From: a phage
Length of the DNA: 64,000 nucleotides
Reading direction: 5' to 3' (one strand)
Assembly (NCBI GenBank): GCA_033286805.1
Contig: GCA_033286805.1_4727.1
Every line of letters begins with the position of its first letter. Position 1 is the stretch's first letter. Positions 1,742-60,220 of the stretch are shown here, in pieces. The position numbers and the translations under genes were made by a program. The notes below the pieces were generated by a model. The model saw nothing but the letters and a program-made list of their open reading frames with translations. It had not been told where the DNA came from and made no database searches.

Positions 1742-1767
1742 TTGGGACTCCTACGTAGGAAAATCTT

Positions 1768-1816
1768 GGCGGGTGATCATGTCCGCCATTTACCTTCTGA
1801 ACCGTTGATTCAGAAG
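1768..1816. promoter_or_regulatory. two further hairpins in the same leader (GGCGG...CCGCC and CTTCTGAA...TTCAGAAG)
   Basis: Inverted repeats at 1768-1787 and 1794-1816 between the terminator hairpin and the start at 1741. Confidence 0.4.
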
Positions 1817-1848
1817 TCAAAAGATAACCGGATACCAACGTCATAAAA

Positions 1849-1881
1849 CCTTCCTCCAACCCAACAGGGAAGGAGGAAGGG
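1849..1881. terminator. GC-rich hairpin element CCTTCCTCC-AACCCAACAGGGA-AGGAGGAAGG
   Basis: 9-bp stem read directly; flanked by CATAAAA on the left; 10 nt downstream of the minus-strand stop at 1891. Confidence 0.6.
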
Positions 1882-1890
1882 ATATAGTGG

Positions 1891-3180: not shown

Positions 3181-3189
3181 GTTAGTTCC

Positions 3190-4506: not shown

Positions 4507-4554
4507 GTGTTGTCTCCAGTAATGATTCAAAAGATAAACCTGAGCGGCATAGAA

Positions 4555-21358: not shown

Positions 21359-23110
21359 ATGAGCGAACAAGAACGAAAACCTAAGAAGAAACTGCTCGGT
21401 ATTCAATGTCGACACATCAGCTATAACGAAGCGAACGATGGCAGCAAGAACGACCTCATGATCGCAAAAGAGATCATGTTCTTCGATGATAATACGCAAG
21501 CGACGAATCTTCGCTTCTTCGAGAATTACAAACGTCCGTTTTGGGTGACGGTAGAGAGTAAACGTAAGAACAAATATAAAAAGGAAAGCGAGAAGCTCTC
21601 GCATGTGCGTCGCTATGATGTCCGCCAAAGTGAACTGGTTGAAAAGATCAGTTCGGTGCTTTATAAAAGACGTGCTGATGACAACACCCGTCTACAGCAG
21701 CTTGCACGGAGTCCATACCTCTATGGCACGGACGTTAGCGCCAGCTGTTATTTAAAAACCCAGTACAACACAAAATGGCCGGAATACGTCGATAAATTAC
21801 CCGCTTCCATTGCCTGTTTCGATATCGAAACCGACGTTGTCCACGGGCACGGTAAGATCGTCTGTATGTCTATTACAATGGGATACAATGCGATACTTTG
21901 CTATACCAAGGACTTCGTTGGTCATATTCCGAATGCGATTGAGAAAACCCATGAGAAGATTCGATATTACCTGGCCGAACGTCTGAATACCAAAGAAGAT
22001 CCTCATGCGTTCGAAAAATATCATTACGATGTGCGAATCGTAGAAAGTCCGGCGCAAGCAGTCATCCAGTGCATGCAGAAGGTTCACGAATGGCAGCCGG
22101 ATTATCTCCTTGGCTGGAATATCGCGTTCGATATTCCGCGCATGCTCCAGGCACTGAACGAGGAAGGGTATCGTCCCGAGGATGTTTTCTCCGATCCTCG
22201 TGTACCACCTAAATATCGTATTGCTCGCTGGGTACCACCGAAGACAGACAAGGTATCTGCTTCAGGTCGTAAAACCAACCTTACCCTTGAGCAGACCTGG
22301 CCGATGTTTTATACGATGGCCACATACCAGGTTATGGATGCGATGTGCGGTTATAAGTTCGTTCGTTTAGGAAGACCGGATGAAGGACGCTATTCACTCG
22401 ATGCGGTGTTAGAGCGAAATAAATGCCATACGAAATTAAAAGCGATTCCTGGTACAGAGGGGTTCACGGAGCTTGCGTGGCACGAAGAGATGCAAACGAA
22501 CCATCAAATCGACTACGGCGTATATAACCTTTGGGATAACCAGGGTATCGAGGCGTTGGACCAGAAAACAAAAGACTATTCGATGACCATCCCTATTCGT
22601 TTGGCGGCGTCGGATTTGAAAGATTTCAGTTCTAACCCTAAACGTATCTGTGACAAACTTTTCTTCGTTTATCTTAACCGTGGGGAAGTCATGGGATGCA
22701 CTGCCGACGACATGACCCAGGAAGAAGATAAGTGGGTTATCTCACGAACCGGACATATCGTCACATTACCGTGCGATCTCATGGCGGACAACGGCATTCA
22801 TCTCTTCTGGGATATGCCGAACCTGAGAAGTTATATCCGTCTATTCGTTGCAGACCTCGACATTAGCAGTTCATACCCAAACGGGCAGATCCTGTTGAAT
22901 TTATCCAGAGCATGTGTTTTTCGTGAGCTCTCGCGCATTGAAGGCGTCTCTGACTATCAATTCAGGAAGTTAGGTATCAACTTTATTACCGGAGGTAAAA
23001 CGAACGCTGTAGACTTCTGTAGAATCGTTTATAAAGCACCATCGATGTTCGAACTCTTAGAACATTTCGATGCAACGCGTCCAAAAGGGGAAGCGCGGAC
23101 CATCGAATGA
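21359..23110 (+). CDS. family-B DNA polymerase N-terminal fragment (3'-5' exonuclease domain plus palm motif A)
   Basis: Exo I CFDIETD, Exo II GWNIAFD, Exo III YNLWD, motif A DLDISSSYP; ends ~75 aa after motif A with no motif B or C. No SD before the ATG. Confidence 0.6.
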   Translation: MSEQERKPKKKLLGIQCRHISYNEANDGSKNDLMIAKEIMFFDDNTQATNLRFFENYKRPFWVTVESKRKNKYKKESEKLSHVRRYDVRQSELVEKISSVLYKRRADDNTRLQQLARSPYLYGTDVSASCYLKTQYNTKWPEYVDKLPASIACFDIETDVVHGHGKIVCMSITMGYNAILCYTKDFVGHIPNAIEKTHEKIRYYLAERLNTKEDPHAFEKYHYDVRIVESPAQAVIQCMQKVHEWQPDYLLGWNIAFDIPRMLQALNEEGYRPEDVFSDPRVPPKYRIARWVPPKTDKVSASGRKTNLTLEQTWPMFYTMATYQVMDAMCGYKFVRLGRPDEGRYSLDAVLERNKCHTKLKAIPGTEGFTELAWHEEMQTNHQIDYGVYNLWDNQGIEALDQKTKDYSMTIPIRLAASDLKDFSSNPKRICDKLFFVYLNRGEVMGCTADDMTQEEDKWVISRTGHIVTLPCDLMADNGIHLFWDMPNLRSYIRLFVADLDISSSYPNGQILLNLSRACVFRELSRIEGVSDYQFRKLGINFITGGKTNAVDFCRIVYKAPSMFELLEHFDATRPKGEARTIE

Positions 23111-23158
23111 ATCAAGTATGTTGATCCTCGTTTAACAAAAAAGAAAACGCATGCGAAG

Positions 23159-23190
23159 CCCCTCCCCCTGGCGGAAGCCGGAGGGAGGGG
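23159..23190. terminator. GC-rich compound hairpin with flanking T/A runs (bidirectional)
   Basis: CCCCTCCC...GGGAGGGG stem followed by TTTT on plus and preceded by an A-run; between convergent genes. Confidence 0.65.
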
Positions 23191-23208
23191 TGGAGGTTTT
23201 ATGTGTTT

Positions 23209-23655
23209 TTAATTATTGTTGGTGGGGTTATCGTCCGGTTTATATTCAATGCCGTAGGCGACGTAACGGTCTGTTGTATGGACGACAAGCGAGATAGGGA
23301 AATCATAATGCATAGTTTTGTCTCGAACGAGCTGAGTAAAGAGATCCATATAACGTATTAAGTCTTCACTGGTGTAATCAGAAGGGAAGAAGACATCGAT
23401 GGTTATTGAATCTTCATAGAGGCGTATGACCAACTTATCCAGAAGGTCGGCATATTGGTTAGCCGGGGTGACGTCCAGCTGACAGATGTCACGATCTCCT
23501 TCGTCTCGCGATACCCACATCGTGGTATCCTGTAATGAGGTTTCAAGGATCTCGAAAACACATTTTGCTGTAAGTCTTAGTTTATTTGTTACGTCATGGT
23601 TAGGTGAATAATGGTCACGGATGTTTTTCACTGCGTCTTTGATAGAGAAAGTCAT
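23209..23655 (-). CDS. small paralog-array protein (family member A)
   Basis: Start moved to the ATG with AGGAA SD (MTFSIKDAVKNI); C-terminal DFPISLVVH...YGIEYKPDD shared with the neighbouring paralogs. Confidence 0.6.
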   Translation of the reverse strand: MTFSIKDAVKNIRDHYSPNHDVTNKLRLTAKCVFEILETSLQDTTMWVSRDEGDRDICQLDVTPANQYADLLDKLVIRLYEDSITIDVFFPSDYTSEDLIRYMDLFTQLVRDKTMHYDFPISLVVHTTDRYVAYGIEYKPDDNPTNNN

Positions 23656-23686
23656 TGTTGCTGTTCCTGTTATAGTCAACATATAG

Positions 23687-23717
23687 CCCTTCCCTAGCCG
23701 TCAAGGCCGGGGAAGGG
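23687..23717. terminator. hairpin CCCTTCCC...GGGAAGGG
   Basis: 8-bp stem flanked by ATATAG and TATG; between paralog genes. Confidence 0.55.
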
Positions 23718-23732
23718 TATGTTTACGTGTAA

Positions 23733-24128
23733 TTACTTTTTGGCGTCCGTTGGTGATTCAGTATGTTTCTCGCTGCTGGTGTACCAGAGTAGGTATGTCG
23801 GGAAAAGATTAACCTCTAAGCTAAACGGGATATTATATTTTTCTTCCATTTTGCAGAGATGTTCTTTAAGTAAATCCCTTGCTTCTTTGTTACGGCGAGC
23901 GGAGTGCCAATGTAGTTCTTCGTTCTCCTTTACCAGTACTTCTACAATGATACGCTGCTCGTGAACCTCGGTTTTCACAATAGCAAGTAAATCGTTACTA
24001 TCGAAACGGGTAAAACGAATGTACGAACCAGGCGTTTTTTCTTGTTTAACGATATCGATCATAGTAGAAATGTGTGGGTGATCGATGTTGTCGTTAACTG
24101 CTTTAACGATGGAATCTACAACGCTCAT
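23733..24128 (-). CDS. small paralog-array protein (divergent member)
   Basis: N-terminus MSVVDSIVKAVN resembles the paralog N-termini; AAGGA SD. Confidence 0.55.
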   Translation of the reverse strand: MSVVDSIVKAVNDNIDHPHISTMIDIVKQEKTPGSYIRFTRFDSNDLLAIVKTEVHEQRIIVEVLVKENEELHWHSARRNKEARDLLKEHLCKMEEKYNIPFSLEVNLFPTYLLWYTSSEKHTESPTDAKK

Positions 24129-24168
24129 TTTTTTTTATCCTTAATGTTATCGGTTTAGAAATAATATT

Positions 24169-24933
24169 TTATTTGCTGTTATCTTTATCGACAGTTGTTA
24201 CCCATGATGGGAAAGCCGGATGGAAACAGAGCGTGAACGTAACCTTCGTATCGTATTTAAACGCACGGTCCACTAGCCGAGTATCGAACGTTTCCCTTAG
24301 ACCGTCATCATCGTTATCGATGACAGCCATATCCCTTAATATCCCAAGCACGTTAACGCCATCTGGTGTCTGGGTTACAACAAGTCGTCGTAATGGTCCG
24401 CATGTATAATCACGTACGTATCCTTTCTTCGGGTCCGATACTCTATTTAACGCATCGTGATTTTCGATGAATTCATCGGCAATACGAGTGATGTGTTCCC
24501 TTGCTTTATCTGGATCGTATTCTGCTAATAGTTCCTTCGTGTCGAATGTTATCGCGTTATTAGCATTCGATTCAGAAGGGAAACATAAAACTAAACGAAC
24601 AGGGTATTCGTATTGATCTGTTCTTGTTTCGAAAGCATTAGCTAAACACGGCTTGTATGCCTTTGCGTCGACATTGTCCAAACACGGATGCAATAATGCA
24701 TGAATAACGGCACCATCATCAGTTAAACCGAATTCCATAAATTGTGTTTCATCGGTGTCTGTTACGGTTTTCTGAAGGTACGCTTTACCGTTAACAATAT
24801 CGGTATCCCACATATCGTCGTTTAACGATTCTTCAAACTTATCGAATATATGGTTTACGAGATTGACGAGTTCATCAATACGGCACTGTTGGTTGAATTC
24901 GATTAATCGTTGAACTTTATCTTTGATAGACAT
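24169..24933 (-). CDS. small paralog-array protein, apparently duplicated domain (254 aa)
   Basis: MSIKDKVQRL N-terminus; internal YEYPVRLVLCFP and VTFTLCFHP repeats; AGGAG SD. Confidence 0.6.
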   Translation of the reverse strand: MSIKDKVQRLIEFNQQCRIDELVNLVNHIFDKFEESLNDDMWDTDIVNGKAYLQKTVTDTDETQFMEFGLTDDGAVIHALLHPCLDNVDAKAYKPCLANAFETRTDQYEYPVRLVLCFPSESNANNAITFDTKELLAEYDPDKAREHITRIADEFIENHDALNRVSDPKKGYVRDYTCGPLRRLVVTQTPDGVNVLGILRDMAVIDNDDDGLRETFDTRLVDRAFKYDTKVTFTLCFHPAFPSWVTTVDKDNSK

Positions 24934-24935
24934 GA

Positions 24936-25394
24936 TTACCCATTAGCTCCTTCTTCGTCTGGAGAGTATTCCATCGTGTAGAATTCATAACCGTCGGAAA
25001 ACTTGAGTGTTAATGTAATAGGGAAATCGCACGGCATAGCTGATTTCGTAAATGCGTTATTAGCAACATCAGCCAACCGACGTATAGCATCAGTCCCGCT
25101 GACGCTGAATGGTAGTTGTATGTTGATAAGGATGCGGTGCTTGTAAACATAGAAAACAACGGTGCTGTCAAGATAAACGCTATGGAACGGTATTGTTGGG
25201 ATGCGTTCCACGATGGTAAAATACGTCCCGTCATTATCGCTATGTCCCACCGACCAAATATCGGATTTGCGTAGATTTTGTTTGAGAGATTCGATACTTC
25301 GAGTGACGGTATCAGCAACAGGTGCGACGTAAGCGTCTTTATGCGAGTCGAAAAGTTCGTTGACGTTAGATTCGAATGAATACATTGTTGCCAT
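24936..25394 (-). CDS. small paralog-array protein
   Basis: C-terminal DFPITLTLKFSDGYEFYTMEYSPDEEG; GAGGT SD. Confidence 0.6.
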   Translation of the reverse strand: MATMYSFESNVNELFDSHKDAYVAPVADTVTRSIESLKQNLRKSDIWSVGHSDNDGTYFTIVERIPTIPFHSVYLDSTVVFYVYKHRILINIQLPFSVSGTDAIRRLADVANNAFTKSAMPCDFPITLTLKFSDGYEFYTMEYSPDEEGANG

Positions 25395-25460
25395 TATTCT
25401 ACCTCAATGGTTTAACCGATACGTGCCCCACCTAACAAGGGACACGTTATCGTTGATTAA

Positions 25461-25955
25461 TTACTCTTCTGTGTTTTCATTGTCTGGATCGTAGTGGAAT
25501 TCGAACAGCCCTGAACCGTCGTGCCCGTTGATTGTTAGTATAACGGGCATATCGAATCCTCGGACACGCGAATGAAAACACTGTGCTAATTTTAGTTTGG
25601 CATATGCCGCTATTTCATTGATGGCAATACACGACTCACCTGTTATACTCAGTATAACGTCGATACTAATGATGTTATCATGCAACGCAAAACGCCAGCG
25701 ATCGATACGATTATTATCTTTATCGGTTGTCTCGTTTACGAGATAGACTTTATCATCAACCGACAAAGCGGGACTCCAGCAACGTTCGTTTATTAAATTC
25801 GCCTGGAGTTTTAGTATCGTCTGATCGATAATATCCCAACACGTAACCAGCGTGGTGTCAGGCACTGAGTAGAGAAGGGCGTGCACTTTATCCTTTATTT
25901 TAAGTGCTTCCGCAGGACGTCCGCAAATACCATGCATTTCAACTTTCTTATTCAT
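25461..25955 (-). CDS. small paralog-array protein
   Basis: C-terminal DMPVILTINGHDGSGLFEFHYDPDNE; ORF-track start is GTG 25961, ATG at 25955 preferred. Confidence 0.55.
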   Translation of the reverse strand: MNKKVEMHGICGRPAEALKIKDKVHALLYSVPDTTLVTCWDIIDQTILKLQANLINERCWSPALSVDDKVYLVNETTDKDNNRIDRWRFALHDNIISIDVILSITGESCIAINEIAAYAKLKLAQCFHSRVRGFDMPVILTINGHDGSGLFEFHYDPDNENTEE

Positions 25956-25998
25956 ATTCACTTCTTTCTTAATCTAAATGTTAGTTGGGGTGGGATGC

Positions 25999-26601
25999 TT
26001 ACATGCTTTCTAGCATATTGACGATCATGGAACCCATACCGAAACTCGGTCTTTCACCGATGTACTCAGCAAGCTGGCGATGGACGTCTTTTGGATTTCC
26101 TTCTTCACCATCGGCATCGATGTAAACCGAAAAAGAAACCGAATCGGAATCCACGCTGATAACCAGACGACGTTCATTGCGTTCCTTGAGCGTGTCGACG
26201 ATAGATGCTTTCAGTACCGGGATCGCATTCATCGCGTGCAAGATATCTCCATCGGGTTTCGGCAGATCGATCTTTTCTTTCAGGTCGATATTGATGTTGG
26301 TTACAATTGGGTTGAGGTCGACCTTGACGTAATCGTTAGGGTACATGCGAATAATCGCACGATCAATATCTGAACCGTAAAAGTCAACACGTGGCTTTAA
26401 CACTTCTTTGTTTGGATCCATGTTTTCATCCATACCTGCCTGCAAGAAACGTTCTACGTTATCCAGTTCACGATAAACTGACGCTTCGATTTCTTTCAGA
26501 TAGTTGGCTGCGGTTTCATGTTCTTTGCGCAGCTCGTCTTTAAGGAGCTGTACGGTGGTTTCACTGGAACGGATGCTGTTCGCGAATTGGGTAATTGACA
26601 T
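25999..26601 (-). CDS. hypothetical protein
   Basis: 200-aa ORF, AAGGAA SD. Confidence 0.6.
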   Translation of the reverse strand: MSITQFANSIRSSETTVQLLKDELRKEHETAANYLKEIEASVYRELDNVERFLQAGMDENMDPNKEVLKPRVDFYGSDIDRAIIRMYPNDYVKVDLNPIVTNINIDLKEKIDLPKPDGDILHAMNAIPVLKASIVDTLKERNERRLVISVDSDSVSFSVYIDADGEEGNPKDVHRQLAEYIGERPSFGMGSMIVNMLESM

Positions 26602-26649
26602 ATCGAATTCCTTAAATTATCTTGAGTTCAATTAATGATGAAAAGCTGT

Positions 26650-26675
26650 AAAAAAAAGGTGGGGCGAACCCCACC
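26650..26675 (-). terminator. rho-independent terminator (minus strand)
   Basis: GGTGGGG-CGAA-CCCCACC preceded on plus by A8, so a U-tract follows on the minus transcript; just past the stop at 26701. Confidence 0.75.
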
Positions 26676-26700
26676 AAAACGTCAGACACACGCAGGAAAA

Positions 26701-27126
26701 TTAATTCAGTGATGCATATAACGCGTAACGACTGTAGATCTCAACCGCCGGTCCGTTATGCGTTAACAGACCATCCTGGTTGTAATATTGGAAAAATGAA
26801 TAACGTTTGTCGAAGTGATAAACAAAAGCAATGTCTTTGCTGCCAAGACCTGTGATGCGTGGTCTGTTTTTATCTAGCAGAGCTTTGACTTTTAACAGTG
26901 TTGCCGCACGTGCTTTAACGTTAGGGATCAAGCCATCACAATCGATATAAACTGTGTAACCTGTTTCAGATGTTGCGACGGTTGTATTACGATTGACGCG
27001 GAAGATTTTTGTTTCGTATGTACTATCTTCAAGAATTGGGTTTTGTTTTTCGTATTTTCGTTTACGTAGAAATTCTACAACGGTGATATAGTTAGCGGTG
27101 ATATGTCCGGTTATAGCTTGTAACAT
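26701..27126 (-). CDS. hypothetical protein
   Basis: 141-aa ORF; AAGAGGA SD lies inside a conserved leader element. Confidence 0.6.
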   Translation of the reverse strand: MLQAITGHITANYITVVEFLRKRKYEKQNPILEDSTYETKIFRVNRNTTVATSETGYTVYIDCDGLIPNVKARAATLLKVKALLDKNRPRITGLGSKDIAFVYHFDKRYSFFQYYNQDGLLTHNGPAVEIYSRYALYASLN

Positions 27127-27244
27127 CTTGACATCCTCTTATATCGGATTGATTACAGTTATCTTAAATAGGCGATAAGATATTTTGCTCTTATCACTAA
27201 GGTAATGTAGTCGCGAAATAAACTGCGTTAAAACGAAATAAAAC
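27127..27244 (-). promoter_or_regulatory. conserved leader/promoter-like element, copy 1
   Basis: 30 nt directly upstream of the ATG are 27/30 identical to 53683-53712, with a second conserved block ~90 nt upstream (ctaaggtaatgtagtcgcgaaataa). Confidence 0.5.
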
Positions 27245-27298: not shown

Positions 27299-27700
27299 TT
27301 AAATGTCGTGGACGGCAATGCCGTTTAACCAGCAATACAGCTTAACGCGACAGGAATACCGCTTCGTTGCGGCAACCATTTCATCGCGTAAACGCTGGTA
27401 GATTTCATCCTGGTGTTCACGATCAATGGGGTAATCAGCCCAACATTCGATCATGACGTCACCATTCGTCAGAATCGTCGTACGCATCCTGTCCTGGATA
27501 CGGCGGTCTTTCCCGGCATTAGGGAAATACATTCCTTCAGTACGAATAAGGTCGCCGCAGGGCATGACTAACCATTCGTTCGTTTTGCCGGTATTCTTAT
27601 AATCCATTACAGCTTGCATTGCGGTGTCAACGCTAAAAGAAACATAATTCCAAACGGATGTCCAACGATAGATTGCGGGTTGTTCGAGTGTTTCGTTCAT
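27299..27700 (-). CDS. hypothetical protein
   Basis: 133-aa ORF flanked by hairpin elements. Confidence 0.55.
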   Translation of the reverse strand: MNETLEQPAIYRWTSVWNYVSFSVDTAMQAVMDYKNTGKTNEWLVMPCGDLIRTEGMYFPNAGKDRRIQDRMRTTILTNGDVMIECWADYPIDREHQDEIYQRLRDEMVAATKRYSCRVKLYCWLNGIAVHDI

Positions 27701-27754
27701 GGAGTGCTTGTCCTATTTTTATTTTCTGCACAGGATAAATTCAACGGCATAAAG

Positions 27755-27786
27755 CCCTTCCCTGCCCTTATATGGGGCGGGAAGAG
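27755..27786. terminator. hairpin CCCTTCCCTGCCC-TTATAT-GGGGCGGGAAG
   Basis: Flanks CATAAAG and TTTATG; in the 214-bp intergenic region. Confidence 0.5.
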
Positions 27787-27914: not shown

Positions 27915-28541
27915 TTATGCAAAGCGACGCATGTAACCTGCCAGATAGTTACGCGTATCGAAGTAGGCAATTTCAGGAATTGCGATATTAAGGTCGATAG
28001 CACGGATTTCAACTTGGCGACGGCTTTCATCATAGATCGCATCCATCAGACGCAGTACTGTCAGGAAAGCCATGCGGGTATGGTAGTCCAGCGGCATGTT
28101 ATCGATACCGCGATACAGATAACGGTTTGCGTTAAATGCCCCTTCGCTGTTATCTTTCCAGATCTTCAGAATATCAGCAAAGGCGGTGCGGAAAACCTCA
28201 GGATTATCCACATCCAGTAACGCACGGAAAGCAGACATTAAAGACCGCTGATGACGGATCAACGACTGCGGCGTTTGCGGCATGGTCGGACCCATTTCTT
28301 CCGCATATTTCTGGAACGGAGCAACCAGGGTTGCGGCACGAGAAGCCACGATAGAAATAACAGGCGATTCTTTCACCACCGGTTTCGCAGGCTTTTCTTC
28401 AACAACGGTTTCCTTCTTCTCAACAGCGACCGTTTCCGGCTGTGCTACAACATCACTAACCGGAGCATCGGCAACGGTGGTTTCTACCGCAGTAATCTCC
28501 TCGTCCATTTTTGCAGAACGTTGGTCTTTATTCTTGCTCAT
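27915..28541 (-). CDS. hypothetical protein with low-complexity N-terminal region
   Basis: 208-aa ORF, AAAGGAAA SD. Confidence 0.6.
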   Translation of the reverse strand: MSKNKDQRSAKMDEEITAVETTVADAPVSDVVAQPETVAVEKKETVVEEKPAKPVVKESPVISIVASRAATLVAPFQKYAEEMGPTMPQTPQSLIRHQRSLMSAFRALLDVDNPEVFRTAFADILKIWKDNSEGAFNANRYLYRGIDNMPLDYHTRMAFLTVLRLMDAIYDESRRQVEIRAIDLNIAIPEIAYFDTRNYLAGYMRRFA

Positions 28542-34979: not shown

Positions 34980-37592
34980 TTAAGCGTCCGGCGTAAAATC
35001 AAAAGGAATGTCCGTACGAATGATATCGTAACGTTTTCCTAGGAAATAAAACTCTTCGGGAACCTGACCAGGAATAATGCTATCGCCGATGAACTGCGGA
35101 TACGCCCAGATGTACTGAGTGAGTCCTTCGAACATATCCAGGTTATTTGCATGGTTACCCATGATACGTTTCCAGAGTTCGCGTTTATACGGTGTTTTAA
35201 CATCGAATCCATAAAGCGGTGCAAGATCTTCACCAGGAACAAATCCCAGGTAATAATGGATCTGACTAACCGGGAAACCAAGCGTATCTCGCGGAATGGT
35301 GATCGCTTGCTCTGCCTTGGTGACATGCGTCTCAATAATCCAGTCGTAGCACTCCGAATAGAACCGGTCGAATTTCTCTGGGTTATACCACGCTTTGGGA
35401 AGATTGAGTTTCTCCGTGAACGCGTTCGACATGATCGTCGGCAAGAACGGAAGAACACCGGTTTTGATCTGCGTGTATTTCGATTTTACCCGATTAACCA
35501 AATTCCAGCAACTGTATCCTAACTGTTCGTTACAAAACTCAACGTAGAGATCGTAGTCACCACCGGATAATGGGTTGTTAATATCACCGATGTCTGCGGC
35601 ATATTTGTTGGGATATCGGTTATTGAAAGCCAGTTTGGTTTGGTAATCGTAGATACACGGTTTGTTGTTCGCTGTATTGATCCACCACCAGGGTTCACCT
35701 ACTTGCACACAAATGTCCTGGACATGGGGGTAGATGATATCAGCAAACGCGGTTAACACATCCCCTAACCACGCCATCGCCTGTTGGTTACATGGAGACA
35801 GCAACCAGGACGGTGGTGTGTATCCGGTTGCTGCGATGTTTCCTTCCCAATCCTGCTGCGCCCACTCGAACGGGCAGGCTGTACTCATCAATTCGTAACT
35901 TAAACTGATGGTGACAGAGAAATGGTGTTTTGCGGCGTATGCAGCGAAAGCTTCATGCCATGCGATACAGGGTGGATTTAATACATCCGTGGTGTTCACC
36001 AGTAACTTACCTGCACTTGGCGTCCAGACAGTATCGTAGAAATGCGACATTCCAACATAGTGCACTAATTCATCCTGATATCCAGCATAAACCAGGTTTT
36101 CAAATACACGCTCTGGCGTGATGTTGTAATGGTCATCATAAGCGGTTATCGCACGAAGTTCGTGTGGCGTACAATGATGGCGATTAACCGTCATTTCCTG
36201 ATACACCCCATCGATAGGAAGAATCTCGAGGGTTAAACCAAGATCGATCGGTGTTTCCAGATAGGTCGTTTCTGTAGCACCTTCTTTATAATGTCGAGAA
36301 CTCATGCTGAACATCAACGACGTTACCGATTCGAGTTCGATAGGCTCGTCAGCATAGAACCCCGCCATTGCGTCATTGAAATCGATCGTTACGATTGCGC
36401 TTCTACCGTCTTCAGAGACATCGGTGGCGTATCGGGTTAATGAGATATACTGACGGCTATCGTCTTTGTGTACGACGGTTAAAACCGGCGGGTTTTCGGT
36501 ATCTGCAAAGTTACGCTGATCGCCAGTAAACGTGATCTTCGCTTTAAAGATCAAACCGAATAACGACGTCATGGGATCATACGCAATACAACCGTGATCC
36601 AGCGTATCCGTTGTCCGCCATTCTATCCCGACCAACCCGTTAGCGGTATGGCATCGCATATACGCATTAAGGACCATGTCTTCACTGACAACCGCGAAGT
36701 TCTCTGTTGACTGACCGTTGATAATCCAATACATCGGTTGCCAGAGGTTACGCGTACCTTTTGCGTAGCGGTAGGTTGGCGCGCCTTTAGGGTTGCCGTT
36801 ATTAAGATGGAATACAGCAGTACCTTGATAATGGTCGTTCGTATTAATCGGAACACTGTAAGCATCACCGAGATCCGTACGTTCCACCTTCTTGACTGTT
36901 GCGTTTTCAAATAACCCACGCAGCGCGGGTAAACCGATATCATCAGGCGCGTTTTCTCGACGAATCGCATCCGCGATGCGGTGGGCTAGGGCGGGGTAAA
37001 TGGTCTCACCCTGTTGTAGGTTTGCAAGACCTACAAAGCGATCGGGAGCGATGCCAGCAATCAATAACTCAACATCACCCTTCGTTCTATCGTCATTAAG
37101 ATATTTCAGTCCGGTAAGGTCAAGATGCTGAATAAGCGACAACAGGTTGTATTTACGGTTTTCAACAGTTAGTACAAGATCGCCTGCCCAAACCAAACTT
37201 CCCTCATCCGCTGTTACTTTAACGGATTGTCGGCCTGTGGTAGACGTTGTTGTCGTTTTATTTAATTGTCCTTGTAGGAAGTCGGTTGCGAGGTCAAAGG
37301 CAATACCGTAACGGTCAGCGACCGCTTGCATGATTTCACGTAACTGGGTATCTTCTTCAATGATAATCTTGACAGGTATTCCCAAGAACGCTTTAGCGAG
37401 GTCTCGTTTAACCAACGAGACGAATACGGATTTGTAGTATCGGCTTCCATCTTTCCCTTTAAAAAGAATGGAGGTTGTTTCGGGTGCCGATAGAACACGT
37501 GCAAATACAACATCGTCGGAAGTAAGAGAAAGTCCGTTTTTCTCGTTGACCAATCTTAGTATTTCATTTTGCGCGGTTTCATGTAACTTCAT
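34980..37592 (-). CDS. putative tail fibre/tailspike-like protein (870 aa) with shared N-terminal domain
   Basis: N-terminal ~110 aa (RDLAKAFLGIPVKI) paralogous to the 43326-43853 and 47669-48499 products. Confidence 0.55.
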   Translation of the reverse strand: MKLHETAQNEILRLVNEKNGLSLTSDDVVFARVLSAPETTSILFKGKDGSRYYKSVFVSLVKRDLAKAFLGIPVKIIIEEDTQLREIMQAVADRYGIAFDLATDFLQGQLNKTTTTSTTGRQSVKVTADEGSLVWAGDLVLTVENRKYNLLSLIQHLDLTGLKYLNDDRTKGDVELLIAGIAPDRFVGLANLQQGETIYPALAHRIADAIRRENAPDDIGLPALRGLFENATVKKVERTDLGDAYSVPINTNDHYQGTAVFHLNNGNPKGAPTYRYAKGTRNLWQPMYWIINGQSTENFAVVSEDMVLNAYMRCHTANGLVGIEWRTTDTLDHGCIAYDPMTSLFGLIFKAKITFTGDQRNFADTENPPVLTVVHKDDSRQYISLTRYATDVSEDGRSAIVTIDFNDAMAGFYADEPIELESVTSLMFSMSSRHYKEGATETTYLETPIDLGLTLEILPIDGVYQEMTVNRHHCTPHELRAITAYDDHYNITPERVFENLVYAGYQDELVHYVGMSHFYDTVWTPSAGKLLVNTTDVLNPPCIAWHEAFAAYAAKHHFSVTISLSYELMSTACPFEWAQQDWEGNIAATGYTPPSWLLSPCNQQAMAWLGDVLTAFADIIYPHVQDICVQVGEPWWWINTANNKPCIYDYQTKLAFNNRYPNKYAADIGDINNPLSGGDYDLYVEFCNEQLGYSCWNLVNRVKSKYTQIKTGVLPFLPTIMSNAFTEKLNLPKAWYNPEKFDRFYSECYDWIIETHVTKAEQAITIPRDTLGFPVSQIHYYLGFVPGEDLAPLYGFDVKTPYKRELWKRIMGNHANNLDMFEGLTQYIWAYPQFIGDSIIPGQVPEEFYFLGKRYDIIRTDIPFDFTPDA

Positions 37593-39024: not shown

Positions 39025-39441
39025 TTACACAGTTGTAGGAAATTCCGGCCAATCGATATTTGGTGCAGCATCGGTATCGACAGCAGTCACCGCATCAGTG
39101 TAATCCAAAACAGCATTAAGTCGGGTCGTTTCTTCCTGAGTCAGTTTTCGCCCAGCCCGTAATTTTAACTGAATAAGATCGATGGAAGCCAGCGCAGAAT
39201 CAATCAAAGATTGTTTTATCTGTTCTGCCTCGGCGACGAGATCTTCGTGTTGCCGCTCGGGTTCCGGAGGTGCGGTAAACTCACCATTTGAGTATGACCA
39301 ACCTATTCCAGGTGACACAGCCTCCTTATCGTCGATATGAACCAACTGCTGATTGTCGAATATATCGAGCTCTGCTTCACCGTCGTAAACAATCGTGTTT
39401 ACTACCACCCCATTTTCAATAACAGCGTATGATGTACTCAT
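39025..39441 (-). CDS. tail fibre assembly protein (Tfa-like chaperone)
   Basis: C-terminal NIDWPEFP resembles the Tfa C-terminus; TAATG overlap with the fibre gene; start moved to ATG 39441 with GAGGAG SD. Confidence 0.7.
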   Translation of the reverse strand: MSTSYAVIENGVVVNTIVYDGEAELDIFDNQQLVHIDDKEAVSPGIGWSYSNGEFTAPPEPERQHEDLVAEAEQIKQSLIDSALASIDLIQLKLRAGRKLTQEETTRLNAVLDYTDAVTAVDTDAAPNIDWPEFPTTV

Positions 39442-42400
39442 TACATAAACTCCTCGATGATGCAAATCCCATTAGCACCACGCCCACCAGGCTTAGCGGT
39501 TCCTGAGTAAGAGTTATCGTAAGCACCGCCACCACCCGAACCAGGCGCGAGGCCGTTATGGGCGGTGCCAACACCAGCGCGACCGCCACCGCCCCAATAT
39601 GACGCACCCCCACATCCACCGACGGCAAGAGTACCGGCTTGTCCATCGTTACCGTCTCCGCCCGGAATGCGTATATCCCCGGTAGTAGGTACGCCCCCAT
39701 AGCCACCGCCAGTGTTTGTGACAGTTGTTTTTCCTGCGCCTTGCCCGCCGGGAGCAGTTAGCAGGGATGCAAATTTACTATCCCCACCCCCGTTCCCAGA
39801 CGTCGCCCCAGAGCCACCGGAACCACCAGAACCAATTACAACAGAATAACTAGCAGCTGTTACCGTTATAACCGAAATTACTGTTCCGCCAGCGCCTCCC
39901 CCAGCGCCAAAAAACGTTTCGCTGTTGGAATAAGCCTGACAGCCACCGCCGCCACCGCCGCCACCGGTTATTGTTACTCTAATCCGTTTTGTTCCTTGTG
40001 TTGGGGTGTACGTCCCTGACGATGTGAAAACACGCATGTTCAGTAAACGTCCGACATATCCGCTAGAATCGGCTAAACCAAGATCTTTAGCTGCTAACGT
40101 GATATTAGCTGTACCGTCAAACGGTTTACCGTTAATCGTGCGCGCGGTCTGCAACTTCGTCGCCGTTGCTGCGTTTCCTGATGTGTTCTGGTTCCCCGCA
40201 GCGTTAACACCCGGCAGATTGATGTTCGCACTACCGTCGAAAGATACCCCACCAATGGTGCGGGCTGTTTTCAGTTTTGTCGCCGTGGCAGCATTACCGG
40301 TTGTGTCTTGGTTACCGGTGGTGTTTACCCCAGGCAGGTTGATATTTGCCGTTCCGTTAAATGAAACACCGCCAATCGTCCTTGCTGTTTGAAGCCTCGT
40401 CGCGGTAGCGGCGTTACCCGTCGTGTTCTGGTTTCCGGTTGTGTTCACACCAGGGATACTATCTTTCGAGGTGTAGATCTGTGCCCATTCTGACCAGTTC
40501 GAATCGGCCGCATCACGACGTGAACGTAGGTAAGCTGGAGCGTATGCACCTGAGGTACCTGACCACCCAATGAGGATTTCACCTTCACCGACCGATGAAG
40601 CCCCTTTAAGATGAATGACGTTACCATAAGCGGTGGGATACCCGTTATTGTACGCTTCATACATCTGGATGCCCGCATTGCTGCCCTGAGCCGTGTTAGC
40701 TAATGCCGTAACACGACCTTTGGAGGCGAGAGCGGTAATACTGAAGCTAATATCCTTAGTACCGTCAAAGGCGACCCCATTAATCTTCCGTGCTGTTTGG
40801 AGTTTCGTGGCGGTAGCCGCATTACCAGAGGTACTCTGATTACCTGCTTTGTTCACGCCAGGCAAATCAATGTTGGCTGTTCCATCAAAGGACACGCCCC
40901 CTATGGTTCTCGCTGTCTGGAGTTTTGTTGCTGAGCCAGCGTTTCCGGAAGTGCTTTGATTACCTGCCGCGTTGACACCTGGTAGGTTAATGCTAGCAGA
41001 GCCATCAAAAGAAACTCCACCGATCGTGATTGGTGTTTTCAATTTCGTGGCTGTCGCAGCATTACCCGTCGTATTCTGATTGCCAGCCGCATTAACGCCT
41101 GGTAATGCGATATCGGTCGTACCATCGAACGCGACACCACCGATTTTACGGGCAGTCTGTAGCTTGGTCGCTGTAGCCGCGTTGCCGCTGGTATTTTGCG
41201 TGCCCGCTTTATTTACGCCTGGTAAATCAATGTTCGCAGTACCATCAAAAGAAACACCCCCGATGGTTCTCGCGGTCTCAAGTTTGGTTGCGCTTCCTGC
41301 GTTTCCGCTGGTGTCTTGGTTTCCCGCTGCATCAACACCCGGTAGACTGATGCTGGCCGAACCATCGAAACTCACACCACCGATCGTAACAGCGGTTTTC
41401 AATTTCGTAGCGGTTGCAGCGTTCCCCGTGGTATTTTGGTTACCTGTCGCATTCACACCCGGTAATGCAATATCCGCTGTTCCGTCAAAGGCAACGCCAC
41501 CGATTCTACGTGCAGTTTGTAGCTTGGTTGCACTAGCAGCGTTACCGCTGGTATTCTGGGTGCCAGCTTTGTTAACACCAGGGAGATCGATGTTAGCAGA
41601 ACCATCGAAGCTAACGCCACCTATCGTTCTTGCAGTAGCAAGTTTAGCTGCTGTAGCAGCGGCGTTACCGACTTTTAACCATTCGCCCCATGGACCATCC
41701 TGGCCGTTCCATGATGCCGTTAAACTACGTACGTAAATATTGCCGGTACATACAGTGTAACGTTGCGTTCCACCGAATTGCCCGGTTGGGAGCACTTCAA
41801 TGTAACCTGCGGCATTTGCTTCAGGGAAATTGTGGGCGACGTCCGCGTTCGTTGATACTGGTTTAGACCAAATACCCACAGACGCTTCAACCGGACCGTA
41901 CGTATTCAGATTTGCGTCGGTGGGAAGTTGTCCTCGAAAACGCTGGAATTGTGTTGCCGATAACCCCAACGTTGTTTGCATGCTTTCAATGCTGGATTGC
42001 TGAAGTAACGTCCGTGCTGTCGACGTAATCACGGTAAGCGCAACTTTATTAACACCGGTGAAATACGGGAGTTTGTCTGCTGATGTCGCTAAACCTGAAA
42101 AGGCGGTCAGTAATGCGTTAAGGGGCTGCTTCCCAGCTAACGCATTTGTTACCGTCGTTGCGAAATTAGGATCACTTCCTATAGCTCGAGCCAGCTTATT
42201 AAGCGTATTTAGCGTCGCTGGTGACGAGTCGATCAGCGCCGTGATCGCACGCATCACAAATTCCGTGTTGGCTATCTGTCGACTGCTATTGTTAACTGCT
42301 GCGGTGGGCGCTGCTGGCGTACCAGTGAATACAGGGCTATTAAGATCCGCCTTGAGGGCGATGAGACGTTTAAGCGCTTCAACATCAACTTTCAGGTTTT

Positions 42401-43319
42401 CCCATCCGATGAGAGAACCACCACTGTTGGTATGATAACGGTTGTACCAGAAGTCACCGTTAACGCCAAAAAAGAATATACATTTCTCTTCGTTTTGTGG
42501 ACCGGAACTATTTCGTGATGAGTCGATATATTTGATTTCAATAAGACCGCTAAACACCACTCCTGGGATTATATTGTTGTCTCCAGCTGATTGTGATACT
42601 TGGTACATCCCCGGGGTTGCAGCTTTAACCCACGTTAAGAATTCTGTTACTCCAGCGTTACCGCTGAAACGCTTAACGTCGGTAAGTATCGCCCCATAAC
42701 CGAACATACCGGGTAAAGCAACTCGCCCATCGGTACGGTCACGAATATCTGTTGCAACAACAGGCAATTGTTTACGAACGGCATTAACCGCTTTAGGCGT
42801 GGCCGATTTTGTCTCGTCGTCGCTATCGGTTTCATTACTTAGAATAGTTAAACCGCGTGTAGTAGTAGTTGCATCAGGAAGAAATGCGTTATCCAACACC
42901 TTAAGCTGTACTGCACTCGTATTACTAACAACGACATGCACTTGACAGTTAAGAACGCTGGTTGCGCCTTCGGCAGGCGTAGGCTTATATCTTTCTGGTG
43001 CACTGCAGACGGCAATCAGAACACCTTGGTCGTCATACAGACCGATCTCACGTACCCAGAACCCACCTTGACCAGCAGGAATAATACCCTCAACGATAAT
43101 CCTAGTTGTGCTATCACCATCCGCATGGATATTAGAAACTTCCCCACGATAAACTTCGTGAACAAGCGCTGTTTGGCTGGCGGTAGGGGTTGGGATCGAG
43201 CCGTTACCATCACCAACGGCAAAGTGTGTGATTTTTAGTTTCTCACCGTCGGGAAGTAACGCAGCGGTGATACGTTCTGCTCCTTTATCGGTAACTACCG
43301 TTATATATGCTGTACTCAT
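39441..43319 (-). CDS. tail fibre protein (1292 aa) with tandem repeats and glycine-rich C-terminus
   Basis: N-terminal KITHFAVGDGNGSIPTPTASQTALV (P2 H / side-tail-fibre-like); more than 10 repeats ending GNAATATKL; Gly-rich C-terminus; Tfa gene immediately downstream. Confidence 0.8.
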   Translation of the reverse strand: MSTAYITVVTDKGAERITAALLPDGEKLKITHFAVGDGNGSIPTPTASQTALVHEVYRGEVSNIHADGDSTTRIIVEGIIPAGQGGFWVREIGLYDDQGVLIAVCSAPERYKPTPAEGATSVLNCQVHVVVSNTSAVQLKVLDNAFLPDATTTTRGLTILSNETDSDDETKSATPKAVNAVRKQLPVVATDIRDRTDGRVALPGMFGYGAILTDVKRFSGNAGVTEFLTWVKAATPGMYQVSQSAGDNNIIPGVVFSGLIEIKYIDSSRNSSGPQNEEKCIFFFGVNGDFWYNRYHTNSGGSLIGWENLKVDVEALKRLIALKADLNSPVFTGTPAAPTAAVNNSSRQIANTEFVMRAITALIDSSPATLNTLNKLARAIGSDPNFATTVTNALAGKQPLNALLTAFSGLATSADKLPYFTGVNKVALTVITSTARTLLQQSSIESMQTTLGLSATQFQRFRGQLPTDANLNTYGPVEASVGIWSKPVSTNADVAHNFPEANAAGYIEVLPTGQFGGTQRYTVCTGNIYVRSLTASWNGQDGPWGEWLKVGNAAATAAKLATARTIGGVSFDGSANIDLPGVNKAGTQNTSGNAASATKLQTARRIGGVAFDGTADIALPGVNATGNQNTTGNAATATKLKTAVTIGGVSFDGSASISLPGVDAAGNQDTSGNAGSATKLETARTIGGVSFDGTANIDLPGVNKAGTQNTSGNAATATKLQTARKIGGVAFDGTTDIALPGVNAAGNQNTTGNAATATKLKTPITIGGVSFDGSASINLPGVNAAGNQSTSGNAGSATKLQTARTIGGVSFDGTANIDLPGVNKAGNQSTSGNAATATKLQTARKINGVAFDGTKDISFSITALASKGRVTALANTAQGSNAGIQMYEAYNNGYPTAYGNVIHLKGASSVGEGEILIGWSGTSGAYAPAYLRSRRDAADSNWSEWAQIYTSKDSIPGVNTTGNQNTTGNAATATRLQTARTIGGVSFNGTANINLPGVNTTGNQDTTGNAATATKLKTARTIGGVSFDGSANINLPGVNAAGNQNTSGNAATATKLQTARTINGKPFDGTANITLAAKDLGLADSSGYVGRLLNMRVFTSSGTYTPTQGTKRIRVTITGGGGGGGGCQAYSNSETFFGAGGGAGGTVISVITVTAASYSVVIGSGGSGGSGATSGNGGGDSKFASLLTAPGGQGAGKTTVTNTGGGYGGVPTTGDIRIPGGDGNDGQAGTLAVGGCGGASYWGGGGRAGVGTAHNGLAPGSGGGGAYDNSYSGTAKPGGRGANGICIIEEFM
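40094..41654 (-). repeat. in-frame tandem coding repeats (~42 aa / ~126 bp units) within the tail fibre gene
   Basis: Repeated TARTIGGVSFDGSANIDLPGVNxxGNQNTSGNAATATKLQ units in two blocks; mirrored by antisense repeat ORFs. Boundaries approximate. Confidence 0.7.
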
Positions 43320-43325: not shown

Positions 43326-43853
43326 TTATCCTGGATAAATAGTGATGATATCACCAATGACGGTTGTGGCACCGGCGTAAAGATGAGCCGGAGATACATC
43401 ATGTTGGTTTGTCACAGTAAGATCCAATCGACCACGCCAAACCATGGAGGTATTCGCGATGGGGATAGAAATCTTTTTGGATATATCGTCACGAAAATCA
43501 ATAACAGTGGCAAGGGTAACCGCATCAAAATCAACATCGGGATCAAAGACGAACCCGTATTGATCTGAAATCGCCCGAATAATGGCATGTATAGTTGTTG
43601 TCTCAACAGACTCTAAAACGATTTTTACCGGTATTCCTAAAAATGCCTTCGCGATATCGCGTCGGGCGTAAACGATAAAGCATTCACCGCACCACTTTGT
43701 TCCTTCATTTGCTGTGACGATCACTTTTGCCCTGTTAGCACCAGAACTCCCATCCAAGGTTAATGTAAGATCGGAGTTGCTGAACACGCTACCGTTACGT
43801 TGGTTTATCAACGTAATCAGTTCGTCTTTCCATGGTGGGTAAAGTGAACGCAT
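43326..43853 (-). CDS. hypothetical tail protein with shared N-terminal domain
   Basis: RRDIAKAFLGIPVKI segment; start moved to ATG 43853 with GGAGGAGGG SD. Confidence 0.55.
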   Translation of the reverse strand: MRSLYPPWKDELITLINQRNGSVFSNSDLTLTLDGSSGANRAKVIVTANEGTKWCGECFIVYARRDIAKAFLGIPVKIVLESVETTTIHAIIRAISDQYGFVFDPDVDFDAVTLATVIDFRDDISKKISIPIANTSMVWRGRLDLTVTNQHDVSPAHLYAGATTVIGDIITIYPG

Positions 43854-43894
43854 AAGCGCACCCTCCTCCAACAATCAAATTAAGATATATAACT

Positions 43895-53682: not shown

Positions 53683-53790
53683 CTTGACATCCTTTTATAT
53701 TGGATTGATTGCTAATAATTCAAGGTGAAGCTGATTACTGTATTGCTTCACCTAGGTAATATAGCCGTGAAAATTAATGTATTAACCTAT
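53683..53790 (-). promoter_or_regulatory. conserved leader/promoter-like element, copy 2
   Basis: cttgacatccttttatattggattgattgc ... cctaggtaatatagccgtgaaaattaa, matching the 27127-27244 copy. Confidence 0.5.
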
Positions 53791-60207: not shown

Positions 60208-60220
60208 AACGAGATTTCTC

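Follow-up and report, generated by a model that had tools for sequence, protein, structure and literature searches.

Nucleus-forming jumbo phages are thought to depend mainly on physical shielding of their DNA. The early anti-defence proteins of classical coliphages, such as T7 Ocr (gp0.3) and T4 Arn, are small, acidic and non-enzymatic and bind host defence proteins. In T4-type phages, early ORFan cassettes of the hyperplastic regions are shuffled at promoter/stem-loop (PeSL) modules (PMC2839356, PMC4122927). The Chimalliviridae have tandem, fast-evolving acidic paralogues in the phiKZ-like PF12699 'inner body' family, some members of which are dispensable in phiKZ; these proteins are 300-500 aa long, arise from late transcripts, are proteolytically processed and are packaged in hundreds to thousands of copies.

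Here we describe an array of five paralogous genes in a 64,000-nt stretch of DNA (the window) from a relative of the nucleus-forming E. coli jumbo phage Goslar (Chimalliviridae). Like the T4-type hyperplastic cassettes, the array consists of small early genes with no annotated function that lie between conserved core blocks and are variably present in near-identical phages: six related genomes hold six differing arrays, with the variable accessory genes confined between the conserved blocks. Intergenic hairpins recur at junctions, as in PeSL cassettes, the same hairpin and leader standing before gene A here and before gp71 in Goslar, and the island is headed by an early-promoter-like motif with a stem-loop. 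However, the T4 cassettes are unrelated ORFans, whereas those of the array are paralogues of one domain, and a Goslar-like phage transcribes with a multisubunit virion RNA polymerase of its own rather than with sigma-70. The promoter-like motif is present in one copy for the island and most gene junctions carry no promoter/stem-loop element, so that PeSL-style modules for each gene are conjectural here. In contrast to PF12699 proteins, the array family is early, is essentially absent from virions and has no sequence match to them. Ocr and Arn may serve, by analogy only, as a working model for the family as early small acidic binders; the array proteins have no sequence or fold similarity to either, and at -4 to -18 their net charge is nowhere near that of DNA mimics.

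Layout of the array and its flanking elements

The open reading frames of the window include five adjoining members of one family on the minus strand, at 23209-25961:

23209..23655, minus strand, gene A: 148 aa (MTFSIKDAV...), single domain of the 'A' subtype
23733..24128, minus strand, gene B: 131 aa, the shortest and most divergent single-domain member
24169-24933, minus strand, gene C: 254 aa, with the domain in two copies
24936..25394, minus strand, gene D: 152 aa, gp72 orthologue
25461..25955, minus strand, gene E: 164 aa, gp73 orthologue

An earlier note on this DNA had claimed five neighbouring minus-strand paralogues, and these are found where it placed them, with the starts of A and E corrected. 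Gene A can be read as a longer ORF of 157 aa (23209-23682); its start is most likely the ATG at 23655, because this codon is supported by an AGGAA ribosome-binding site, by the L002 gene call and by the match to orthologue P0102. For gene E, a longer ORF (25461-25961) has a GTG at 25961 as an alternative start. The ATG at 25955 is the most likely one, and the L002 gene call for the E orthologue is likewise 164 aa. A ribosome-binding site was found before each of genes A to E. Gene E has a 20-aa N-terminal extension (..HGICGRP..), and part of the N-terminal helical hairpin is missing from gene B in the alignment.

The array is flanked or interrupted by the following features:

27174..27222, minus strand: putative early (virion RNA polymerase) promoter, T-rich block-N5-TACATTAC, then a 5' stem-loop
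26701-27126, minus strand, gene G: gp75 orthologue
26658..26675, minus strand: GC-rich hairpin and T-run resembling an intrinsic terminator, between G and F; annotated as a terminator in Goslar
25999-26601, minus strand, gene F: gp74 orthologue
23680..23717, minus strand: conserved hairpin CCCTTCCCC..GGGAAGGG, then CTATATG, directly upstream of gene A
23159..23190, minus strand: terminator-like hairpin that closes the array

The putative early promoter, predicted at 27202-27222 within this stretch, separates late gene H (gp76) from early gene G (gp75). At the orthologous position in Goslar, ChmA-independent expression rises from a log2FC of about -5 (gp76) to +1.1 (gp75). TAYATTAC occurs at two sites only in the 64 kb, with the same flanks at both, and the second site (53756-53777) lies at the gp106/gp105 step. 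From motif and position, we infer that 27174..27222 is probably an early promoter. Goslar read density is alike on either side of the terminator between G and F, which means that this element is leaky or that another start follows it. The hairpin upstream of gene A, together with its downstream leader, recurs before another family member, namely gp71 in Goslar and the gp71-type gene in L003 and L005; its loop is inverted relative to Goslar. The closing terminator-like sequence is identical in Goslar, L003 and L005, where it follows an unrelated gp70-type gene. Scanning the region for sigma-70 promoters and terminators gave counts not above those of shuffles; this is uninformative, because the phage has its own polymerases.

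Genes F and G lie upstream of the array on the same strand and are 96-97% identical to gp74 and gp75, which belong to the early expression class in Goslar. No relation of F or G to the family is detectable by HMM or hhalign. As candidate members, F, G, H, the gp70-type gene and two extra L005 genes were all rejected (HMM/hhalign probability of at most 1%, E>0.05). By eye, these genes display a similar pattern of strand, acidic turn, helix and strand.

Family relationships and predicted fold

Pairwise BLASTP connects A with D (31.5% identity over 73 aa, E 2.5e-8), D with E (24% over 153 aa, E 1.8e-6) and C with E (26% over 125 aa, E 8.5e-5). As a control, each member was scored against 1000 of its own shuffles with a profile from which its whole subfamily had been omitted. 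Under these conditions all members beat all 1000 shuffles. Gene A reached 50.7 bits and the first domain of gene C 35.1 bits; gene B was modest, at 13.9 bits against a shuffle maximum of 10.3, and the second half of gene C was the weakest and marginal, at 8.3 bits against 7.5. Leave-one-out E values were 4e-6 for gene B and 1e-3 for the second domain of gene C. Judged by BLASTP and by leave-out profiles that score above shuffles, the shared similarity lies beyond chance and A to E are a true paralogue family.

Conservation across the family is highest in the (Y/F)D(F/M)P-strand block. The motifs by which the array was first recognized are real in the alignments, but their strictness is unequal: the terminal Y.PD is present only in A, D and E, and the SIKD-type N-terminus is strict only in A and C, with E having it after the 20-aa extension and B and D in a degenerate form. 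It had also been proposed that one member carries the domain twice. This is gene C, in which the HMM reports two domains:

24532..24933, minus strand, gene C domain 1: residues 1 to ~134, from the HMM and the AlphaFold2 model
24169..24531, minus strand, gene C domain 2: residues ~135-254 and the stop codon; second, divergent copy, from the HMM and the model

The AlphaFold2 model of C (pLDDT 78) contains the series helix, beta-meander, helix, beta-hairpin twice over. Domain 1 is modelled with a helix at 3-37, four strands at 43-81, a helix at 90-105 and strands at 112-118 and 126-131; domain 2 has the same order of elements, with a helix at 141-158, three strands at 172-199, a helix at 210-222 and strands at 231-236 and 243-248. 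These observations support a tandem duplication of the domain in gene C, for a total of six copies in the five genes of the array.

The fold models are based on shallow alignments of 21-22 sequences. For D the AlphaFold2 model has a pLDDT of 88 and a pTM of 0.80, and its helix/sheet topology is common to both halves of C. One domain, of ~130-165 residues, is predicted to be a compact acidic alpha/beta module. It opens at the N-terminus with a helical hairpin, continues through an antiparallel meander of four strands and a third helix, and ends at the C-terminus in a beta-hairpin whose start is marked by the conserved (Y/F)D(F/M)P turn. Compared site by site, 34 D-type orthologues vary across helices 2 and 3 as well as the C-terminal tail, with no change in the (C/Y)DFP turn. 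The proteins are soluble and acidic by their pI of 4.6-6.0 and negative GRAVY (hydropathy). No polar residue conserved family-wide was found; a catalytic site is therefore unlikely.

Foldseek searches of the PDB gave a best TM-score of 0.39 and no convincing neighbour, and with the D model the sole real match in the BFVD viral fold search was Goslar gp73. The nearest solved folds are the T3S4 substrate-switch domain of PscP (5cuk) and the domains of the CamS sex-pheromone-precursor lipoprotein (3ib5, 2qx2, 3n2q). Identity with the T3S4 (PscP/YscP/FliK) substrate-switch domain was rejected, as a significant superposition combined with the sequence signature of that family was not found. DNA-mimic anti-restriction proteins of the Ocr/ArdA type were rejected on charge array and fold match. 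Searches of Pfam-A, PHROGs v4, NCBIfam, PADLOC-DB and PDB sequences returned no match reaching the cut-off (best E 0.01-0.3, at chance level), none of the 22 family members scanned matched PF12699, and no solved inhibitor structure turned up in the PDB searches. The earlier note had not recognized the motif, and in agreement with this, profile libraries, PDB sequences and fold searches gave no convincing match: the domain is previously undescribed and the family is new. Elsewhere in the window, a gene at 3190-4530 has a weak match to PF12699.

Distribution and turnover in the Goslar lineage

An exhaustive HMM scan of 1.84e9 (1.84 billion) representatives returned 15 clusters at E<=1e-3, made up of 14 clusters of short proteins of the family's own sequence types and one false positive. 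The latter, P0110, is a 1448-aa repeat protein whose score is the sum of weak repeats. In three word-indexed searches, the longest contigs of all matches were either fragments or 229-259 kb in length and came from E. coli, Salmonella and Shigella samples. No distant relatives in other phages or bacteria came out of the HMM scan, the word-indexed searches, an IMG/VR scan or a tblastn search of 50,697 phage records, and the matches of all of these, P0110 apart, were Goslar-like sequences only. Other chimalliviruses yielded no homologue in either the exhaustive HMM search or the viral fold search, and the whole Goslar genome matched only at gp71, gp72 and gp73. These searches show that the family is restricted to the Goslar-like phage lineage. 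In the literature, gp71, gp72 and gp73 are named in no main text that we found and are confined to rows of two supplementary tables.

Gene D is 88.5% identical to Goslar gp72 and gene E is 81% identical to gp73; Goslar lacks orthologues of A, B and C. The arrays of the six genomes are drawn from at least 10 subtypes in a conserved order (E-X-D-C-B-B2-gp71t-Y-A) and have the gp74 orthologue and the terminal terminator, both conserved, as their boundaries. D and E are present in all six, and the number of family copies per genome ranges from 3 to 8 among near-identical phages. Truncated or chimeric forms exist in the databases, including a chimera (P0106), an internal-deletion form (P0111) and P0099. 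Reading frames are unbroken in every genome examined, and full-length forms occur on many database contigs.

The dN/dS ratio is 0.16-0.47 for C, D, E and the L005 orthologue of B, compared with 0.08-0.12 for F, G and H, and the non-synonymous rate of the array is 2-5 times that of its neighbours. Relative to L003, identity is only 40-44% for A and B, inside flanks that keep more than 92%. The diversification proposed earlier for this array is thus apparent both as presence/absence polymorphism and as dN/dS values above those of the flanking genes. These data show that the array proteins evolve faster than their neighbours while purifying selection persists. Since dN/dS remains well under 1, relaxed constraint could account for the fast evolution instead of an arms race. 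Moreover, the paralogues are ancient (12-28% identical, against 54-96% for orthologues), so a recent 'accordion' response to selection does not explain the array.

Expression and candidate functions

Published RNA-seq data for Goslar compare chimallin knock-down with control at 30 min (Sup. Table 2); the log2 ratio of the former to the latter is +1.0 to +1.3 for gp70-75 and -3.6 to -6.1 for gp68, gp69 and gp76-79 (bioRxiv 10.1101/2023.09.20.558163). According to its authors, the knock-down transcriptome equals the early transcriptome at 5-20 min (bioRxiv 10.1101/2023.09.20.558163). These data show that the Goslar genes gp70-75 form an early, nucleus-independent transcript class, an assignment that discriminates weakly because 175 of 249 Goslar genes (~70%) are already transcribed at 5 min. 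By extension from gp71-73, genes A, B and C of the window phage are probably equally early.

We consider it an evenly balanced proposition that A to E are a lineage-specific multigene family of early, non-structural, host-directed binding proteins in Goslar-like phages of enterobacteria and that the array is an accessory tool-kit. The genes would belong to an early-gene island (gp70-75 in Goslar) with nucleus-dependent genes on both sides. The injected virion RNA polymerase would transcribe this island from the early infection vesicle, before and independently of the phage nucleus, and host ribosomes would translate the messages in the cytoplasm. There the paralogues may act by protein binding, probably non-enzymatically, each on a separate host target, for instance a component of a defence system or a factor that the phage takes over. 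The composition of the tool-kit would be reshuffled among phages by deletion, fusion and recombination at the conserved intergenic hairpins. Early class, absence from virions, presence/absence variation and faster evolution are consistent with the earlier suggestion of an anti-defence or host-manipulation role, which we infer rather than observe.

A more specific version of host-directed binding, which we regard as possible but doubtful, is that the array constitutes a counter-defence island and encodes structurally novel early effectors that each neutralize a different cytoplasmic immunity or stress pathway of the host. The effectors would act while the genome is still in the early vesicle, when only phage mRNA and protein are exposed. 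If true, this would explain why close relatives carry differing subsets, and it would make the array a host-range determinant in enterobacterial chimalliviruses. The family offers a tractable list of candidates for acting on defences that sense RNA, proteins or early infection, and Goslar with E. coli is a model system in which knock-down tools, RNA-seq and proteomics are in place. In addition, the catalogue of phage proteins gains an undescribed domain with no convincing fold neighbour.

It is rather unlikely, in our judgement, that the family serves the early programme of the phage itself and not the host, for instance as chaperones or adaptors for early phage proteins, as modulators of the two phage RNA polymerases or as helpers of genome transfer from vesicle to nucleus. 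The array does have gp78, the gene for a virion RNA polymerase subunit, on one side and the DNA polymerase gene on the other, its early class is shared with nucleus-building genes, and the occurrence of D and E in 6/6 genomes, with selection purifying overall, would fit a conserved phage-internal role equally well. However, that programme is conserved throughout the Chimalliviridae, in which neither the exhaustive HMM search nor the viral fold search found a homologue outside the Goslar lineage, and both the 3 to 8 copies among near-identical phages and the elevated non-synonymous rates speak against it. If the function were phage-internal, or the phenotype negligible, this would be an ordinary case of another hypothetical accessory gene family.

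We see still less reason to expect that the paralogues mediate competition between related jumbo phages, as superinfection exclusion or incompatibility factors directed at a co-infecting relative, with diversification driven by other Goslar-like phages as targets. Many close Goslar-like genomes with differing arrays co-circulate in similar sample types, expression is early, and the divergence of A and B from their L003 counterparts inside well-conserved flanks is allele-like; but host-directed functions predict the same signals, and no fold link to nucleases or known exclusion proteins was found.

Chimalliviruses also have tandem paralogue families of injected head proteins, and the array proteins, being acidic and encoded in Goslar beside the unrelated gp70, which is detected at ~166 copies per virion, might resemble the PF12699 paralogues of phiKZ-like phages in being packaged and injected with the DNA. 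Virion LC-MS (Table S4, median copies per virion) makes this very improbable. It gives 3.7 copies for gp71, 0.54 for gp72 and 0.40 for gp73, amounts that match those of non-virion RNA polymerase contaminants, against 330-2150 for the PF12699 proteins gp53 and gp58 (bioRxiv 10.64898/2026.04.21.720040). In the part of the RNA-seq table drawn on here, the transcripts of capsid protein gp41 and other virion genes are nucleus-dependent (bioRxiv 10.1101/2023.09.20.558163), unlike those of the family, which also has no PF12699 match. Goslar gp71, gp72 and gp73 are thus shown to be early transcripts with trace-level peptides, essentially absent from the virion, and a virion role is already largely refuted for gp72 and gp73.

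Finally, decaying duplicates or chance ORFs with no function are scarcely credible and are already contradicted by conservation and expression, since the truncated or chimeric database forms and the weak conservation of gene B and the second domain of C are set against intact frames, dN/dS of 0.16-0.47, a ribosome-binding site at each gene, confident models, and transcripts and peptides from the Goslar orthologues.

The tandem array and its domain family

Region 22800-27200 of the window shares 91.2% nucleotide identity with Escherichia phage vB_EcoM_Goslar, a 237-kb, nucleus-forming jumbo phage of the Chimalliviridae, with only 60% of its length covered. Five adjacent genes for small proteins (A-E) lie here, followed by neighbours F-I; all are annotated as 'hypothetical protein', and in Goslar gp71 and gp70 occupy the place of A, B, and C. 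Gene numbers 70-79 agree between the GenBank and RefSeq records of Goslar.

Genes of the region, with Goslar orthologues and amino acid identities
A: 23209-23682, minus strand, no Goslar orthologue
B: 23733-24128, minus strand, no Goslar orthologue
C: 24169-24933, minus strand, no Goslar orthologue
D: 24936-25394, minus strand, gp72 (88.5%)
E: 25461-25961, minus strand, gp73 (81%)
F: 25999-26601, minus strand, gp74 (96%)
G: 26701-27126, minus strand, gp75 (97%)
H: 27299-27700, minus strand, gp76 (98%)
I: 27915-28541, minus strand, gp77 (93%)

On the Logan contig L002, which encodes a C protein identical to that of the window, the gene caller started A at ATG 23655 (148 aa) and E at ATG 25955 (164 aa). 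Based on these calls and on a ribosome-binding site at each, we adopted both as the probable starts.

The earlier note had described the five adjacent genes as related. This was confirmed by pairwise BLASTP (E-values of 2.5e-8 for A-D, 1.8e-6 for D-E, 8.5e-5 for C-E, and 0.004 for A-E), by a MAFFT alignment in which the members have in common a helix motif at the N-terminus, a Trp, a hydrophobic strand (..I.I..), and a (Y/F)D(F/M)P-strand block, and by leave-one-out HMMs, whose E-values, calculated for the window's 209 ORFs, were 1e-13 (A), 4e-6 (B), 8e-9 (N-terminal half of C), 1e-3 (C-terminal half of C), 2e-17 (D), and 1e-11 (E). When an entire subfamily was withheld from the profile, each member outscored all 1000 of its own shuffles, placing the shared similarity above chance; the score was modest for B (13.9 vs 10.3 bits for the best shuffle) and marginal for the second half of C (8.3 vs 7.5 bits).

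Fold models were built with AlphaFold2 on shallow alignments. The model of D is confident (pLDDT 88, pTM 0.80; 22-sequence alignment) and runs from two helices through a four-stranded meander and a third helix to a β-hairpin. The model of C (pLDDT 78) has this element order twice, at residues 1-~134 and ~135-254, bearing out the earlier suggestion that one member carries the domain twice. Together with the family matches, this makes the array one of five genes and six domains. The proteins are hydrophilic and acidic (pI 4.6-6.0, negative GRAVY hydropathy). No polar residue is invariant family-wide in the alignments and conservation peaks at the turn leading into strand 5, which argues for a scaffold rather than an enzyme.

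The motif was unfamiliar in the earlier note, and searches of Pfam-A, PHROGs, NCBIfam, PADLOC-DB, and PDB sequences returned no significant family match. The top Foldseek match in the PDB reached a TM-score of just 0.39, and Goslar gp73 was the sole return from BFVD. These results show a genuine, previously undescribed domain family.

Distribution and array variation among Goslar-like phages

When 1.84 billion representative proteins, a library without genomic context, were searched exhaustively with the profile, 15 clusters reached E<=1e-3: 14 consisted of short proteins with sequence types of the family itself, and the other was a repeat-protein false positive. Word-indexed searches, which give context, placed every match on contigs from samples of E. 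coli, Salmonella, or Shigella, the longest of them being either fragments or 229-259 kb in size. Goslar alone was matched by tblastn among 50,697 phage records, IMG/VR added two further Goslar-like contigs, and within the whole Goslar genome the profile found only gp71, gp72, and gp73. F, G, H, and the gp70-type gene had no detectable relation to the family. Together, these results show that the family is restricted to Goslar-like enterobacterial chimalliviruses. Isolate assemblies of Salmonella enterica, E. coli, and Shigella hold many members (up to ~200 member sequences per cluster), pointing to frequent co-sequencing of Goslar-like phages with clinical or food isolates.

Comparison of six Goslar-like genomes revealed six different arrays, colinear in the order of at least 10 subtypes. 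Only E and D occur in all six.

Subtype order of the arrays (X, Y, A2, B2, and gp71type are subtypes found in relatives)
Window: E-D-C-B-A
Goslar: E-D-gp71type
L003: E-X-D-C-B2-gp71type-Y-A2
L005: E-X-D-C-B-gp71type-Y
L014: E-X-D-B-B2-gp71type-Y (contig stops here)
L015: E-D-C-Y-A2

Paralogues are 12-28% identical to D, whereas orthologues are 54-96% identical. Therefore, the duplications are old, and the differences between arrays reflect loss, exchange, and fusion, not recent amplification. Two database proteins resemble recombination or deletion products that arose within the array: P0106, a natural chimera lacking the central sheet, joins a Y-type N-terminus (46% identity) to an A-type C-terminus (96%), and P0111 is an internally deleted E-type protein. 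C, D, E, and the L005 orthologue of B had dN/dS ratios of 0.16-0.47, compared with 0.08-0.12 in the neighbours F, G, and H. A and B are only 40-44% identical to their L003 counterparts, against >92% for flanking proteins. The array is thus variable in composition and evolves faster than its neighbours, under purifying selection overall.

A conserved hairpin and leader (23680-23717, minus strand) lies upstream of A in the window; in Goslar, L003, and L005 it stands before the gp71-type gene instead, and an array-closing terminator-like hairpin is kept in the same four genomes. Such conserved junction elements around variable cargo are reminiscent of PeSL-mediated shuffling in T4-type hyperplastic regions (PMC2839356, PMC4122927). 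The array represents a new family within the phage early accessory multigene families of hyperplastic regions.

A GC-rich hairpin with a GGGAAGGGCT(A/T)TATG end occurs upstream of A (23687-23717, minus strand) and of the late gene H (27748-27762, minus strand); the Goslar copy before gp71 (L001 5369-5457) has the same stem as the window's, with a loop that is reverse-complemented. The gp70-type gene, unrelated to the family, closes the array in Goslar (L001 4323-4808), L003, L005, and L015 and is absent from the window.

Early expression and possible role

In Goslar RNA-seq at 30 min (Sup. Table 2), the log2 fold change on chimallin knock-down relative to control is bimodal genome-wide, with +1.0 to +1.3 for gp70-75 and -3.6 to -6.1 for gp68, gp69, and gp76-79; the knock-down transcriptome was shown to match the 5-20 min early transcriptome, made in the early infection vesicle (bioRxiv 10.1101/2023.09.20.558163). 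Therefore, gp70-75 form an early-gene island amid nucleus-dependent genes. Early expression is common to most Goslar genes.

The 64 kb contain only two TAYATTAC octamers, both intergenic; each is preceded at a distance of 5 nt by a T-rich block and followed by a stem-loop.

27202-27222 (27174-27222 with flanks), minus strand: between late H and early G
53756-53777, minus strand: at the gp106/gp105 step

Both match upward steps in Goslar nucleus-independent expression, and the first coincides exactly with the expression-class switch (gp76/75). They agree with the way phiKZ early promoters have been described, as a T-rich motif upstream of an extended -10 box (PMC8244752), and are candidate early promoters of the virion RNA polymerase. 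A terminator-like hairpin lies between G and F, with similar Goslar read density on either side.

In virion proteomics (Table S4), gp71, gp72, and gp73 have medians of 3.7, 0.54, and 0.40 copies per virion, comparable with non-virion RNA polymerase subunits (~0.5); abundant contaminants include PhuZ (171) and chimallin (126), gp77 is a capsid decoration protein, and gp78 is a virion RNA polymerase subunit (bioRxiv 10.64898/2026.04.21.720040). With both transcripts and peptides detected, the family in Goslar is expressed, early, and not structural, as read from the orthologues there; A, B, and C are without Goslar counterparts. The unrelated gp70 pairs, unusually, an early-class transcript with ~166 copies per virion (166 in the same table).

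We give roughly even chances to these proteins being binding modules that act on host targets in the cytoplasm of the infected cell, in counter-defence or take-over, with the caveat that the family's dN/dS stays <1. The earlier proposal of anti-defence or host-manipulation factors is partly supported. An early role internal to the phage is unlikely, given that the family is absent from all other chimalliviruses and its copy number varies between relatives, and a role in competition between phages is more doubtful still. That these are virion proteins is highly improbable, being contradicted by the Goslar proteomics, and conservation and expression make non-functional ORFs even less credible. 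The array supplies concrete candidates for the factors with which a nucleus-forming phage may manage the part of infection that takes place in the cytoplasm.

Other repeated genes and the DNA polymerase gene in the window

A second tandem paralogue array (58284-61048, minus strand) comprises five or six neighbouring genes that encode related proteins of 115-249 aa (lowest BLASTP E-value 4e-26) with repeated sigma-70-region-4, HTH, or Myb-like motifs and orthologues at ~Goslar gp114-119. Three adjacent paralogues of ~430-446 aa occupy 440-4530 (minus strand), one with a weak match to PF12699, phiKZ internal head protein (E 7.7e-5, under the gathering score). Three dispersed minus-strand genes (43326-43874, 47669-48499, and 34980-37592) share an N-terminal domain. 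Pfam assigns DUF7941 to the first two; gp86, the Goslar orthologue of the third, bears this label in the virion table, and DUF7941 proteins are described there as forming a filament cloud (bioRxiv 10.64898/2026.04.21.720040).

Plus-strand ORFs 40006-40392 and 41080-41736 are 62% identical over 99 aa and lie antisense to 39441-43319 (minus strand), indicating a long internal repeat in this 1292-aa tail-fibre-like gene. The DNA polymerase gene (21359-23110, plus strand) is a single uninterrupted ORF of 583 aa in the window. The annotation of its Goslar counterpart spans 499 aa, and behind it come a NUMOD1/HNH homing-endonuclease gene (gp69) and ~800 bp without annotation; the L005 gene is interrupted in the same way, and in L003 the polymerase is intact with a DUF7941 gene inserted alongside.
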